The notes below the pieces were generated by a model, which was given only the letters and a program-made list of their open reading frames with translations, did no database searches and had not been told where the DNA came from. A stretch of DNA of 45,557 bases from Promethearchaeota archaeon (GTDB taxonomy: Archaea > Asgardarchaeota > Lokiarchaeia > Sigyniarchaeales > SOKP01): positions 1 through 45,557 of the forward strand of contig RDOA01000024.1 of the NCBI GenBank assembly GCA_011364925.1, given 5' to 3'. Below are positions 22,524 through 29,233 of the stretch, one piece after another. The position numbers were made by a program, and so were the translations under genes. Position 1 is the stretch's first letter, and every line of letters begins with the position of its first letter.

Positions 22524-23048
22524 TTAGATCTTGGATTCTTTTAATTTTAAAGATAAATTTATTAGTAATTTATGTAAATCTAATTTATAACCGATAAGGG
22601 GTGTTAGGTGGATTTGGTATGTCGTTTTGTCGATTATTAGGTATCCCTCCTTCTCAAGTTCTTTTAAATCACTCATTATATCTTTTTTATTTCTTAAGTT
22701 TCTAATTTCTTGAATTGGAGCACTCCCAGAATTTTTAAGGCAAGAAGTTAGTGTACACAATAAAGTTGCTGCTAAACTGGGCTTCCCCTCAAAAGGATTA
22801 GCTGAGATCAATTCTGTTATCTCTTTATCAGAGCTCAAATACCAATGTAAATTTAGAGAGTTAAATTTAATTTGAAGTCCTAAGGGTATGAGATAATTAG
22901 ATAATCCAACAATTAAATTCTGGAAATAAATCGACTTGTTTTTGTTTTTCACGTTTAGGATATCGAGTATCTCTTCTTCTGTAGCCCCGATTTGATATGC
23001 ACTTCTTTTTTTGCTAAGTAAGTGCATTAAAATTGACATCTCATTCAT
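22524..23048 (-). CDS. KITE subunit (tandem winged helix; Nse1/ScpB-like)
   Basis: 'LSNYLIPLGLQIKF..HWYL' and 'LKELEKEGYL..IHLTP' resemble the two wH modules of Nse1/ScpB; last gene of the SMC-kleisin operon. Confidence 0.68.
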   Translation of the reverse strand: MNEMSILMHLLSKKRSAYQIGATEEEILDILNVKNKNKSIYFQNLIVGLSNYLIPLGLQIKFNSLNLHWYLSSDKEITELISANPFEGKPSLAATLLCTLTSCLKNSGSAPIQEIRNLRNKKDIMSDLKELEKEGYLIIDKTTYQIHLTPLIGYKLDLHKLLINLSLKLKESKI

Positions 23049-23061
23049 AATTTCAAAAACC

Positions 23062-23709
23062 TCAAATATATAAACTATTAGTTTCTCTTTGGTACTTAAT
23101 TTTGCCTAATTGAAGCAAATGCAATAAATAAACAAATTTTTCGTAAATGTTTATTTGATCAATTTCATTTTCGAACACTTCTTCAAAATTACAGGGAAGT
23201 ATGTTCTTAATTTCCTCAAAAAATTCGTTAACTTTCTCAGTGAATTTAAGCTTTGGGATTTCTAATAAAAATTGGTAGTCACTTTTCTCTTTATCCAAAT
23301 GTTCAATCGCAAAATCTAAATCTTTCTCTTTACAGAAACGATCTAAAGCGTATTCTAAAAAATTGTAAGATAAAGGTTCTATTTCAAAATTAAAATTCCA
23401 GCAACCAGTAAAAATATCGTACATTTCTTTTTCATTTGGGTTTTTTTTCATAAATTCAATAAATCTCTTTTCAATATCTAATGAATTAAGCAGATTCCTC
23501 AATTCCTCGAATTTACGGTCTAATAGTTCACATACATTAATGAAACTTTTAGAGTAATTCTTAATATTGAAAGTGTTAAGTGAATCCTTTATGTCGCTGA
23601 ATATTGGCAATAATTCAAATTCTAATAAGTTAATTTTACCTAAAAGAACTTCTTCTTTAATATCTTCAATTTTTTTGTTAATCTTTTCTGAAAAATCGAT
23701 TTCTTCCAC
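23062..23709 (-). CDS. Kleisin (ScpA/Nse4-like)
   Basis: N-terminal 'VLLGKINLLEFEL' (cf. ScpA 'GEIDPWDIDI') and C-terminal wH 'EKFVYLLHLLQLGKIKYQ'; starts 2 nt after the SMC stop. Confidence 0.75.
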   Translation of the reverse strand: MEEIDFSEKINKKIEDIKEEVLLGKINLLEFELLPIFSDIKDSLNTFNIKNYSKSFINVCELLDRKFEELRNLLNSLDIEKRFIEFMKKNPNEKEMYDIFTGCWNFNFEIEPLSYNFLEYALDRFCKEKDLDFAIEHLDKEKSDYQFLLEIPKLKFTEKVNEFFEEIKNILPCNFEEVFENEIDQINIYEKFVYLLHLLQLGKIKYQRETNSLYI

Positions 23710-27203: not shown

Positions 27204-27224
27204 TCTTCTTCACCTAATTTGGCA

Positions 27225-28478
27225 TCATTTCCCAAATGCTCGTTTTAAATTATCTACGCGTTTTTTTGCTTTTTCTAAGTTAACTTGAGCCATTTTAGGG
27301 CTATCGTTTAAAATGAATGCGTATTGCGCAATTAACTTTCTATCATTTTCTTCCAACTTCTCTTGCTTATTTAACTTATCAATAACGAGTATTAATTCGC
27401 TATAATTTTTCGAAACTGCATTTTCGTATAGTTGATCGCGCATAAATTCAGAAAATCTTTCCTCTTTTATCATATTGAGCAGTTCAGTTGAAATGGTACT
27501 TTCCGAACTCTCACTCTTTCCTTTTTTGAAAGCTTTATTTTGTACTTTTTGATTCTCATCAACATCATTATACAATAATTTCTGTTCTCCTTGTTCTCGT
27601 GAAATGGAAGGAATATATTCTCCTGATTCTATTAAATCAATCAATATATCTGTAATTTCGTTGCTAGAGTCGTTTAACTCAGAATTAAGAAACTGCTTAA
27701 AGATACCAATTTTTAATAATTGATTAATGTCTTTCACTTCCCATTTATCTGTATATTCCACCAGGGTTTTAATTTCAAACGAAATTTTTGGATTTTTCTC
27801 AGCAAAGTTTCTGAAAATGGTTTCCCTCTCAATTTTGTCAAGTAAAGGGATTTTTATAAATAGATCAAAAACTTCAAAGATTAATCTCGAATTTACTTCG
27901 ATCTCTTTGATATTGTTGTTAATCCAGATGAATAATAAACCCGCTTTGATCATCATCTTCTTGTCTTTGACCGATGTCATAAATAATTCCAAAAGGTTTC
28001 TCTTGTATGGTTGTATGTTAGAAAAATTCTCTTGGTTAATTAAGAATATTCCCCCAATTTTACCTTCTCCTTGTTGTTCCTCTGTTGTTTGAGAACTTTT
28101 TTTATGAGACTCCTCAAATTGAATCAAAGAGTCCAAAATGAATGAAAAGTTGTTGTAAAACTCATCGGGGGTTTTAATTATCTCTTCATGATTCAGTTCA
28201 TAAAAGTTTAAATAATAATTTTTAGAAATTAGCTTTAAATAATCAACTACATCTGTTCCTACACTAATATTAATGATAATAGCTCCGTTTGGTTGAATAA
28301 ACTTGTTATAACTCTGTACGATTGTTTCTTCGTGGTTAGTTAACATTATTTTCAGATAGTTAATAATATCGTTATACTTATCGCGATAAAAAATCTCCTC
28401 CCTATCAATTTCAATTTCATTAGGTGTAATTATCCGATAGTACTTAGAAAGATCAATATCGTTATCTATATCTGCCAT
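27225..28478 (-). CDS. Degenerate (probably ATPase-dead) classic AAA+ domain protein
   Basis: Looks like a CDC48/FtsH-type AAA scaffold ('PNGAIIINISVGTD', 'FYELN', 'FDLFIKIPLLDKIERETIF', 'LVEYTDKWEVKDINQL') but lacks GKT, DE and the Arg finger. Confidence 0.62.
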   Translation of the reverse strand: MADIDNDIDLSKYYRIITPNEIEIDREEIFYRDKYNDIINYLKIMLTNHEETIVQSYNKFIQPNGAIIINISVGTDVVDYLKLISKNYYLNFYELNHEEIIKTPDEFYNNFSFILDSLIQFEESHKKSSQTTEEQQGEGKIGGIFLINQENFSNIQPYKRNLLELFMTSVKDKKMMIKAGLLFIWINNNIKEIEVNSRLIFEVFDLFIKIPLLDKIERETIFRNFAEKNPKISFEIKTLVEYTDKWEVKDINQLLKIGIFKQFLNSELNDSSNEITDILIDLIESGEYIPSISREQGEQKLLYNDVDENQKVQNKAFKKGKSESSESTISTELLNMIKEERFSEFMRDQLYENAVSKNYSELILVIDKLNKQEKLEENDRKLIAQYAFILNDSPKMAQVNLEKAKKRVDNLKRAFGK

Positions 28479-28834
28479 AGAGAATTTCCTTTTAATGATA
28501 TTTATTTTTTTCTAACATTATTTCCATGTCAATTCTCACATATATATTTAGCGTTTGATTACTTACCGACAAAAACTCAATCATTTATATATCTTGATTT
28601 AAAATATCAAGATCTTAATTAAGTAATTTAGAACAAAATTTAATGTAAAAAGAGTTGTCTAGTTTTCAAAATTTAATTGATTATAACAATTAAAGAGCAT
28701 AAGGTTATAGTTTTCCAATAAATAATACAACATTATATTGCGTTTAAGAGAAAAATGCCTAAAACTCATTTAGAAATTATTATGATTAAAAGGTAAAAGA
28801 TTTAATAGCTTAATTTCTGAATGTGCGAGAATCT

Positions 28835-29233
28835 TTAAAGCGATAAAATTTCATTAAGGATTTCTAAATTTTGGTCTACTTCTTCCCTAAACAAGTGATA
28901 ATAAGTGAATTTTTGTTTTTTATACCCCTGTATAATGCCAGCTGCGACTAATTTTCTTAAATGATGAGATATGGTAGATTGGGACTTATTTAAAATGGCT
29001 TCTAATTCACAAACGCACCTATCTTGATCCTTTAAAGCTTTTATTATGATTAATCGCTCCTTAGATGAAATCGCAGATGTAAACCTTTCAATCGTATTTA
29101 AATTTGTATTTTCTTCTAAATTATTTCCCAATTTTAATAAATTTTCAAATACAATATCTGAATTTGATAGATTTCTACAAGAGCATAACTTTTTTTTTAT
29201 TTCTAATGTTTTTCTTTGTGTTATAAGAACCAC
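28835..29233 (-). CDS. arsR: ArsR/SmtB family metalloregulator
   Basis: RLIII, DRCVCEL (As-binding CVC), SQSTISHHL; extra N-terminal CSC; divergent from acr3. Start codon uncertain. Confidence 0.9.
   Translation of the reverse strand: MVLITQRKTLEIKKKLCSCRNLSNSDIVFENLLKLGNNLEENTNLNTIERFTSAISSKERLIIIKALKDQDRCVCELEAILNKSQSTISHHLRKLVAAGIIQGYKKQKFTYYHLFREEVDQNLEILNEILSL

Follow-up and report, generated by a model that had tools for sequence, protein, structure and literature searches.

A catalytically degenerate AAA+ protein, probably a fourth partner of the SMC5/6-related operon of Asgard archaea

Introduction

SMC rings organise chromosomes across all domains of life. In archaea, an operon encoding an SMC protein, a kleisin and a kite subunit has been published as "SMC5/6-related" (van Hooff et al., 10.1101/2024.01.07.573240; Yoshinaga & Inagaki 2021, PMC8665677), and its SMC was placed as sister to eukaryotic SMC5/6 (10.1101/2024.01.07.573240). 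Among prokaryotic complexes, the SMC5/6-related one of Asgard archaea is the nearest relative to eukaryotic Smc5/6. In a 45,557-nucleotide stretch of a Lokiarchaeial genome (hereafter the window), such an operon opens with an additional gene, P0001. What does this gene encode, and does its product work with the ring? A preliminary description, made from the sequence alone, had taken it for a catalytically dead AAA+ protein and knew of no comparable subunit in any SMC complex. Indeed, no SMC complex with an AAA+-fold subunit was found in the literature searched, and none of the papers described the AAA gene of the SMC5/6-related operon. The SMC-kleisin-kite operon is thus already published, and the AAA gene ahead of the SMC gene is probably an undescribed fourth partner.

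Results

Organization of the operon

The operon is encoded on the reverse strand, and its features are as follows.

28479..28834, (-) strand: AT-rich intergenic stretch preceding the operon, presumed promoter region, as judged from the sequence only
27225..28478, (-) strand: P0001, first gene of the operon, encoding a 417-aa pseudo-AAA+ protein (open reading frame and translation)
27204..27224, (-) strand: spacer of 21 nt with AGGTGA, preceding the SMC start codon
23712..27203, (-) strand: P0002, second SMC paralogue of 1163 aa, SMC5/6-related type (SMC_N, AAA_23 and SMC_hinge matches)
23062..23709, (-) strand: P0003, kleisin-like gene, 215 aa (conserved operon position, weak profile match)
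22524..23048, (-) strand: P0004, kite-like gene, 174 aa (conserved position)

As had been claimed, P0001 heads the SMC operon: the short AGGTGA-containing gap leads to the SMC start, and the kleisin-like and kite-like genes follow. P0001 and the ring subunits may share one transcript. The open reading frame is more than a chance one, since 545 homologues are free of stops and the dN/dS is about 0.1. The ArsR gene at 28835-29233 was considered as a further operon member and rejected; it partners a divergent arsenic cassette.

P0002 possesses all of the Walker A, signature and Walker B motifs and scores far under the canonical SMC cut-offs; the canonical SMC and ScpB are encoded on a separate contig of the same genome. 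The P0002-P0003-P0004 operon is orthologous to the Promethearchaeum syntrophicum operon of 10.1101/2024.01.07.573240, whose SMC, kleisin and kite bear the gene numbers 495-497. P. syntrophicum MK-D1 has the same four-gene order, with 25-39% identity gene by gene, and its counterpart of P0001 is DSAG12_00496, annotated as hypothetical. Matched by gene number, this locus appears to be the published operon itself. In a PDB search, the P0003 kleisin profile (A6) gave a weak, sub-threshold match (E 0.054) to the C-terminal winged helix of Pyrococcus furiosus ScpA (4i99_C), and the kite profile (A5) gave only MAGE-B1, also sub-threshold (E 1.2). Pfam showed no PF04079 ScpB match in P0004. We term P0003 kleisin-like and P0004 kite-like on the basis of their positions, these very weak profile matches and the published assignment in P. 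syntrophicum.

Overall structure of P0001

The AF2 model of the single P0001 chain (pLDDT 78) presents an α/β core and a helical lid. Structural similarity search using Foldseek revealed p97 D2, VAT, FtsH and Vps4 as the best matches (E ~1e-8). A VIA search of the model, covering residues 6-310, yielded Z scores of 16.4-15.4 to bacterial Trip13, VAT, 55LCC, NVL, Vps4, Pex1/6 and spastin, with an rmsd of 3.8-4.1 over 251-258 residues for the match at Z 16.4. Chains of Ycf2-FtsHi were also among the fold matches of these two programs.

P0001 alone had no match in Pfam, NCBIfam or PDB sequence searches, and Pfam returned no AAA match for ten distant relatives from a representative search, nor for seven orthologues of two more Lokiarchaeial families, one containing P. 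syntrophicum and the other a lineage of higher GC. The homology to AAA proteins is visible only via structure and via profiles that include orthologues from outside Lokiarchaeia. An Asgard-wide profile of P0001 orthologues (A3) matches Cdc48/p97 at E 1e-51. The orthologues of Thor- and Freyrarchaeia and those labelled f30 pass the cut-off of PF00004, and those of Jord- and Baldrarchaeia match PF17862 (AAA_lid_3). A Loki-only profile compared by hhalign with the Cdc48, PAN and other AAA modules of the same genome gave E 4.9e-4, and this profile-profile alignment stays in register for 177 columns. Altogether, model and profiles assign P0001 to the AAA+ fold and, within it, to the classical (Cdc48/PAN/Vps4) clade.

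Along the chain, the following segments are distinguished.

28245..28271, (-) strand: degenerate Walker A motif (P-loop), NISVGTDVV, residues 70-78 (in-register alignments and column counts)
28029..28049, (-) strand: degenerate Walker B motif, IFLINQE, residues 144-150 (in-register alignments and column counts)
27864..27884, (-) strand: second region of homology, LIFEVFD, residues 199-205 (alignments and column counts)
27603..27848, (-) strand: AAA lid domain with the classical-clade pattern, residues ~211-292 (orthologues match PF17862 AAA_lid_3)
27465..27602, (-) strand: fast-evolving, low-confidence linker, residues ~293-338 (pLDDT 31-50, dN/dS 0.2-0.4)
27228..27464, (-) strand: C-terminal helical domain, residues 339-417, hallmark of the family and the most conserved part of P0001

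The strings that form the lid pattern lie at residues 204-222 and 239-254, where Arg218 and Trp246-Glu247 are invariant in Lokiarchaeia. The preliminary description had read from the sequence a Cdc48/PAN/Vps4-type AAA fold with the corresponding lid pattern and a helical C-terminal domain. The fold was borne out by the Foldseek and VIA searches and the A3 profile, the lid pattern by the residues just given, and the helical domain by models of both the whole protein and the domain alone.

Loss of the catalytic residues

The three motif positions had likewise been assigned earlier, together with the absence of the catalytic residues from them. Both the profile-profile alignment and A3 place NISVGTDVV, IFLINQE and LIFEVFD at Walker A, Walker B and the second region of homology, the latter alignment giving an identical register of GTGKT in Freyrarchaeia, GTDFE in Thorarchaeia and GTDVV in the window. 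Column counts over 26 Loki sequences agree that the Walker A Lys and Thr, the Walker B Asp-Glu and the Arg fingers are absent from P0001. In Walker A, Val77 takes the place of the Lys and Val78 that of the Thr; the Lys column is Ile, Val, Leu or Phe in 26/26 Loki sequences of alignment A1, and Asp76 in the P-loop is invariant across the same 26. In Walker B, Asn148-Gln149 stands where Asp-Glu is expected, with Asn, Asp or Glu at the first position of the Loki sequences (Asp in 9/26) and Gln, Glu or Asp at the second. Ile200 and Val203 occupy the two Arg-finger positions, and none of the Loki sequences aligned has an Arg in either column. The adjacent Phe204-Asp205 is invariant in all 26 sequences, and a sensor-1-like Asn is often retained at position 187/188. 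The aromatic residue of pore loop 1 is also missing: the MWYG/MWFG of Cdc48 aligns with non-aromatic residues of the family consensus, P0001 itself having KTPDE in this stretch. These alignments show that P0001 has lost the residues that bind and hydrolyse ATP as well as those of the pore loop.

The intact P-loop (GxxGxGKT) was found only in Freyrarchaeial and Borrarchaeial relatives and in those of another Lokiarchaeial order (f6), and in these the Walker B Asp-Glu is replaced by Asp-Asn or Glu-Asp. The motifs form a series from GRSGTGKT with IDN in Freyarchaeum, through GPPGTD with IER or IDQ in Thorarchaeia, to SVGTD with INQ in the window. As Freyr- and Borrarchaeial relatives retain the GKT P-loop, the family decayed from an ATP binder; from the combination of a kept GKT with an altered Walker B, the ancestral partner was probably an ATP-binding, slow-hydrolysing switch that the Loki- and Thorarchaeial lines then fixed as a scaffold free of nucleotide.

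The C-terminal helical domain

The C-terminal domain is confidently modelled on its own (pLDDT 91.5). For this domain of ~80 residues modelled alone, structural search of the PDB gave no convincing match, the best being at Z 5.5 in VIA and E 0.85 in Foldseek. The P0001 gene is under purifying selection, which is strongest on this domain: the dN/dS is 0.10-0.13 overall, 0.09-0.14 in the AAA body and 0.03-0.05 in the C-terminal domain. As the domain resembles nothing known, its partner is a guess.

Linkage to the SMC operon

At 83/83 testable loci, a P0001-type gene immediately precedes the gene of one SMC paralogue, after which come the kleisin-like and kite-like genes. These loci are from Loki-, Thor-, Hermod-, Jord-, Baldr- and Freyrarchaeia, with two related variants adding Borrarchaeum, and comprise 14/14 loci of Lokiarchaeia, 13/13 of other Asgard families, 54/54 from GTDB (those not cut by a contig end) and the two variant operons. 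The SMC linkage anticipated for related genomes therefore holds throughout Lokiarchaeia and extends well beyond. The four-gene adjacency persists while the outer genes vary. The median gap between the stop codon of the P0001-type gene and the SMC start is 7 nt, with ≤25 nt in 65/67 loci and 4-nt overlaps in some, a size typical of translational coupling. The sole locus labelled Thermoproteota comes from a genome that is grouped in the Asgard phylum.

The profile of the C-terminal domain (A7) finds one copy per genome in 85/200 Asgard genomes. P0001 has no match in five Loki genomes: in two of them a contig end truncates the operon, and the other three also miss the SMC paralogue and the kite. 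The P0001-type gene thus shows obligate operon linkage and is co-lost with the SMC paralogue. Fused (Rosetta-stone) forms of P0001 were absent among the longer proteins, a negative that is weak as evidence.

Discussion

Proposed function and alternative explanations

We propose, with moderate confidence, that P0001 descends from a Cdc48/VAT-type classical AAA module, has lost catalysis and now serves the SMC5/6-related SMC-kleisin-kite complex of Asgard archaea as a dedicated fourth subunit or regulator. That it precedes the SMC5/6-related operon in every Asgard lineage where it is found makes it probably a fourth partner of the ring, and we infer a role as ring regulator or adaptor. Operon membership is by itself no proof of complex membership. 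In the proposed mechanism, P0001 would dock on the ring, at the SMC head or neck, the kleisin or the kite, using the highly conserved helical domain at its C-terminus. The AAA body, rigid and dead, may then offer a platform for protein or DNA contacts and thereby control how the heads engage or how the ring is loaded or released, in a role analogous, not homologous, to that of Nse5/6 in eukaryotic Smc5/6.

Extended to the ancestors of eukaryotes, this proposal becomes tentative. The SMC5/6-type ring of Asgard archaea might have had an AAA+-derived fourth subunit that first acted as an ATP-binding, slow-hydrolysing switch, as it may still do in Freyr- and Borrarchaeia, and was later fixed as a nucleotide-free scaffold in the Loki- and Thorarchaeial lines; it would gate loading or release, a job possibly passed on to the unrelated Nse5/6 in eukaryotes.

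Other explanations differ in what P0001 is thought to act upon. It might be an adaptor to a live classical AAA protein, for example one of the three Cdc48/VAT paralogues, with the C-terminal domain holding the SMC ring for extraction or unloading, comparable to LAP1/LULL1 of Torsin or the inactive FtsHi. Cdc48/VAT proteins are the nearest relatives of P0001 in fold and sequence, and the genome encodes three Cdc48-like, two PAN-like and other AAA proteins. However, no live AAA gene, whether MoxR-VWA or other, lies beside the operon in the window or among the neighbours scanned in three other lineages, the finger positions have no conserved Arg that could activate a neighbouring subunit, and hexamer contacts in the classical clade usually need bound nucleotide, so that we consider such an adaptor rather improbable. 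Still less probable is that P0001 is co-transcribed yet independent, a scaffold or chaperone that has nothing to do with the ring and sits in the operon via shared regulation only. A C-terminal domain with no known partner would fit this, but the adjacency holds at all testable loci of at least six Asgard classes despite changing flanks, the gaps are of the size usual for translationally coupled genes, and the single-copy gene disappears along with the operon.

Two further readings carry small weight. Loki P0001 could still be a nucleotide-binding switch, holding ATP or ADP by a non-canonical mode and signalling the nucleotide state to the SMC; the GxxGxGKT kept in the Freyr-, Borrarchaeial and f6 relatives, the Asp at the first Walker B position of a third of the Loki sequences (9/26) and the frequent sensor-1-like Asn point in this direction. 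Against it, all 26 Loki sequences have a hydrophobic residue for the Lys, no Thr and an invariant P-loop Asp, a residue likely to repel phosphate, and they lack Arg fingers; we regard it as very unlikely. The least probable reading makes the operon part of an SMC-based defence system akin to Wadjet or Lamassu, which would act on foreign DNA and use the AAA-like protein as its sensor or effector. It draws on the generic similarity of the SMC head to the LmuB and JetC models, and on the restriction of extrachromosomal and viral DNA by eukaryotic Smc5/6 that is stated in PMC9458440. PADLOC models, however, match none of P0001, P0003 and P0004, the SMC matches are to a generic ABC head only, the locus is single-copy with neighbours conserved family-wide, and domain searches found no nuclease or other effector domain in the operon proteins. 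Defence was rejected as a leading idea on the missing PADLOC matches and the generic SMC matches.

If P0001 is a ring partner, a conserved single-copy protein that is co-lost with the operon would enter models of ring loading and regulation as a new component and would inform the reconstruction of the eukaryotic ancestor. Relatives that range from an intact P-loop to a fully dead site form a natural set of matched proteins for probing the role of the former nucleotide site. As the gene is present in the cultured P. syntrophicum, the question is experimentally reachable.

Comparison with known systems

P0001 shares with Cdc48/p97/VAT, Vps4, spastin, FtsH and PAN the α/β core and helical lid (Z ~16) and homology at the profile level, and it retains two features of classical AAA proteins, the FD...P...R at the core-lid junction and the T-x-x-W/F-x-x-x-D motif of the lid. 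Unlike Cdc48-type proteins, it is a single module that has no N domain. The Lys and Thr of Walker A, the Asp-Glu of Walker B, the two Arg fingers and the aromatic of pore loop 1 are all missing. P0001 also carries, at its C-terminus, an additional helical domain unmatched in the PDB, and its gene is tied to an SMC operon.

Naturally inactive AAA+ partners, such as LAP1/LULL1 with Torsin, FtsHi/Ycf2 and the δ and δ′ subunits of the clamp loader, pair with live AAA+ subunits. P0001 resembles them in being an AAA+ fold kept under selection in the absence of catalysis, a fold that they put to structural or regulatory use. It differs in having no linked live AAA+ partner and no conserved Arg to complete the active site of a neighbour.

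The complex of Nse5 and Nse6, which are α-solenoid proteins, is reported to inhibit the Smc5/6 ATPase (PMC8327961). The preliminary description had suggested an Nse5/6-like loader or adaptor, or else a partner that helps an active AAA unfoldase to unload the ring. P0001 might share with Nse5/6 the role of a non-SMC, non-kleisin, non-kite accessory that regulates ATPase and loading; as an α-solenoid and an AAA+ fold have no homology, "Nse5/6-like" refers to role only, not to kinship.

Finally, the published SMC5/6-related operon has the same three downstream genes, with canonical SMC and ScpB likewise elsewhere in the genome. It is presented as three subunits with no AAA gene mentioned, whereas here a fourth gene precedes the SMC gene at every testable locus.

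The pseudo-AAA+ gene heads an SMC operon in several Asgard lineages

The 417-residue pseudo-AAA+ protein (P0001) is encoded by the first of four consecutive minus-strand genes.

27225-28478, minus strand: pseudo-AAA+ gene, an ORF of 417 residues
23712-27203, minus strand: SMC gene (1163 aa), starting 21 nt past the AAA-like gene
23062-23709, minus strand: kleisin-like gene (215 aa)
22524-23048, minus strand: kite-like gene (174 aa)

The 21-nt spacer in front of the SMC gene contains AGGTGA, and 76 nt separate the 3' end of the operon from a glucoamylase gene in convergent orientation. On the 5' side, a 356-nt AT-rich spacer is followed by an ArsR gene (28835-29233, minus strand) that belongs to a divergent plus-strand arsenic cassette. 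An ArsR-family gene occupies the equivalent position at four loci of the same family (L037, L038, L047 and L048), indicating that the operon neighbourhood is conserved within the family, although the two functions look unrelated.

The SMC of this operon is a second, divergent paralogue, scoring 157 bits against the 729-bit cut-off of TIGR02169; the canonical SMC and a Pfam-recognisable ScpB of the same genome reside on another contig (C49). In Promethearchaeum syntrophicum, genes 495-497 were described as encoding an SMC related to SMC5/6, a kleisin related to Nse4 and a kite related to Nse1/3, such archaeal operons encoding three subunits (10.1101/2024.01.07.573240). The designation of the ring as SMC5/6-related follows this published work and the orthology with the P. 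syntrophicum genes. The AAA gene is mentioned neither in that paper or its supplements nor by Yoshinaga & Inagaki (PMC8665677), and a full-text literature search for its accessions and for an AAA+ or pseudo-ATPase accessory subunit of Asgard SMC found nothing relevant. The MK-D1 member, DSAG12_00496, is annotated as a 'hypothetical protein'. Hence the SMC-kleisin-kite operon is already known, whereas its AAA-derived fourth gene appears undescribed and would add to the known range of SMC-complex architectures.

The same gene order (AAA-like, SMC, kleisin-like, kite-like) recurs at all 14 Lokiarchaeial loci retrieved (three families), at all 13 loci retrieved for a further five Asgard families, and at 54 of 57 Asgard loci in the GTDB species set, the remaining three stopping at a contig edge. 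The preliminary description had placed the gene at the head of the SMC operon, a linkage that thus holds in Lokiarchaeia and extends to other Asgard families. The AAA-like gene and the SMC gene are closely spaced: the median gap between stop and start is 7 nt, 65 of 67 loci do not exceed 25 nt, and at several the genes overlap by 4 nt. A profile of the C-terminal domain matches 85 of 200 Asgard genomes, always as a single copy, and the gene is present in 106 of 121 Lokiarchaeia genomes. Among five match-less Lokiarchaeial genomes checked, two begin a contig with the kite gene, the operon having been cut by assembly, and three have neither the kite nor the SMC paralogue. Single copy, constant adjacency and joint absence together indicate that the gene was gained, kept and lost with the operon. 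By source names, the carriers comprise Lokiarchaeia, Thorarchaeota, Hermodarchaeota, Jordarchaeales, Baldrarchaeum and Freyarchaeum; the named species among them include P. syntrophicum MK-D1 and Ca. Harpocratesius repetitus. One locus (L119, JAPDJY010000061.1) is titled 'Thermoproteota archaeon'; the phylum sample around its genome, G278, contains Asgard genomes already searched, so the submitter's title is probably at odds with the GTDB placement.

The linked SMCs show several peculiarities. In the C-terminal head of the window SMC, Pro replaces the H-loop His of the canonical SMC (QFLVISHRE). The window SMC and its orthologues in L043, L052, L057, L059, L134 and L135, seven lineages in all, read FLPK, IMPD, FTPA, VTPL, LVPD, VTPK or ITPR at this site; eukaryotic SMC5/6 may have a similar TP motif. 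The SMC of Ca. Freyarchaeum deiterrae (L057:10070-12577, plus strand) has only 835 aa, compared to ~1120-1180 aa in other lineages, and its coiled coil is thus likely to be much shorter. The SMC of one Thorarchaeota genome (L055/L083) is split into two ORFs of 797 and 239 aa, and the AAA-like gene of L119 into ORFs of 116 and 172 aa, both of which could be frameshifts or assembly errors.

The protein adopts a classical AAA+ fold

On its own, P0001 has no sequence match in Pfam, NCBIfam or PDB. Its 545 relatives in a set of 5.8 billion proteins are all unnamed or 'hypothetical', and those whose organism is named are nearly all Lokiarchaeota/Promethearchaeota. An AlphaFold2 model built with 26 relatives as input has a mean pLDDT of 78 and a pTM of 0.64. 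Foldseek search with this model retrieved p97/VCP D2, VAT, FtsH and Vps4 at E ~1e-8. Independently of Foldseek, VIA matched residues 6-310 to bacterial Trip13, VAT, 55LCC, NVL, Vps4, Pex1/6, ATAD2 and spastin with Z-scores of 16.4-15.4, and ranked clamp loaders, ClpB, Orc and Cdc6 lower (Z ~12).

Sequence-level proof came via orthologues outside Lokiarchaeia. An Asgard-wide profile of 16 sequences (A3) matched Cdc48/p97 at E 1e-51 (1e-24 per domain); Thor, Freyr and f30-family orthologues score above the PF00004 gathering threshold, while Jord and Baldr orthologues match AAA_lid_3. The Loki-only profile also hits the Cdc48, PAN and other AAA modules of the same genome (E 4.9e-4 over 177 columns). 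Altogether, these matches confirm an AAA+ fold of the classical clade, in agreement with the preliminary description.

The catalytic motifs are lost

The motif register is consistent between alignments.

Classical motifs and their counterparts in the window protein
P-loop: G-P-P-G-T-G-K-T; I-S-V-G-T-D-V-V
Walker B: Asp-Glu; Asn148-Gln149
Arg fingers: two Arg; Ile200 and Val203
Pore loop 1: MWYG in Cdc48 D2; no aromatic residue

The Walker A Lys is replaced by Val77, a position occupied by I/V/L/F in all 26 Lokiarchaeial sequences, across which the P-loop Asp76 is invariant. The Loki family has N/D/E and Q/E/D at the two Walker B positions and no Arg at either finger column. MWYG of Cdc48 lines up with non-aromatic residues in the Asgard-wide family consensus. 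None of the seven orthologues in Lokiarchaeial families f2 and f3, MK-D1 included, has a GKT. Judged by these motifs, the window protein is predicted neither to bind nucleotide canonically, nor to hydrolyse it, nor to thread a substrate. The preliminary description, which had read a catalytically dead AAA+ protein from the sequence, is therefore upheld in both fold and missing motifs; the strings it quoted lie at residues 70-78, 144-150, 199-205, 204-222 and 239-254.

The orthologues form a graded series. The Freyarchaeum protein (459 aa) keeps GRSGTGKT and one Arg before the FD motif and has Asp-Asn at Walker B; the sensor-1 Asn is kept in one of two Freyr sequences. Thor orthologues have GPPGTD, corresponding to the classical GPPGTGKT minus Lys, with ER, DQ, RH, EK or GT at Walker B. 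The Loki proteins are more degraded than Thor, and in those of Jord and Baldr (271-315 aa) a large part of the AAA core is gone. In addition, two genomes have a related, variant AAA gene at the front of an SMC-kleisin-kite operon that is more divergent.

L134:6034-7656, plus strand: variant of G010, a genome from another Lokiarchaeial order
L135:6273-7292, minus strand: variant of Ca. Borrarchaeum

The G010 variant has GPEGNGKT, a Walker B Asp-Asn and an N-terminal coiled-coil-like extension, and the Borrarchaeum variant has an intact GKT with a Walker B Glu-Asp. Their C-terminal region lacks the hallmark motifs of the window family and, by eye, looks like a winged helix. Downstream come a more divergent SMC, which matches the window SMC at E 1e-10 to 1e-13, and kleisin-like and kite-like genes. 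As GKT-bearing proteins are encoded beside such SMCs, the partnership appears to predate the loss of the nucleotide site.

Two neighbouring genes yielded weak matches. The gene directly 5' of the G010 variant (L134:5500-6030, plus strand) has a sub-threshold match to the E2-like UFC1 (E 1e-4; 22.3 bits, cut-off 25). A Freyarchaeum gene ~340 nt upstream of the operon (L057:7610-8350, plus strand) matches Peptidase_M48 over 28 residues (24 bits, cut-off 20.3) and, below threshold, a RING finger. The UFC1 and RING-finger matches are curious, since eukaryotic Smc5/6 has ubiquitin and SUMO ligase subunits.

Purifying selection is strongest on a private C-terminal domain

Compared with the closest congeners (dS ~1-1.7), the gene as a whole has a dN/dS of 0.10-0.13. 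The AAA body gives 0.09-0.14, a low-confidence linker (residues 293-338) reaches 0.19-0.43, and the C-terminal domain (residues 339-417) has the lowest values, 0.03-0.05. The gene is not decaying, and its C-terminal domain is the family's hallmark. A separate model of this domain is a confident helical bundle (pLDDT 91.5), for which the PDB gave no convincing counterpart (best VIA Z 5.5; best Foldseek E 0.85).

A putative accessory subunit of the SMC ring

The family joins a private C-terminal domain to an AAA+ fold that is conserved and under selection yet non-catalytic, and it is encoded only with this SMC paralogue. We propose that the protein is probably a subunit or regulator physically associated with the SMC ring. 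It would dock on the ring through the C-terminal domain, while the rigid AAA body might serve as a platform influencing head engagement, loading or release.

It is unlikely that the protein acts instead as an adaptor for an active AAA machine, as no live AAA gene is linked to the operon here and the protein has no Arg to complete a partner's active site. That it is co-transcribed yet functionally independent is somewhat less probable again, and residual non-canonical nucleotide sensing is doubtful still further. Least credible is a defence role of the operon: no PADLOC model fits the three non-SMC proteins, and the PADLOC matches of the SMC are generic.

The interpretation as a ring-associated subunit or regulator is plausible, and the proposed role would be analogous to that of Nse5/6 in eukaryotic Smc5/6. 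By contrast, the folds are unrelated: Nse5/6 is an α-solenoid, whereas the window protein is built on AAA+.
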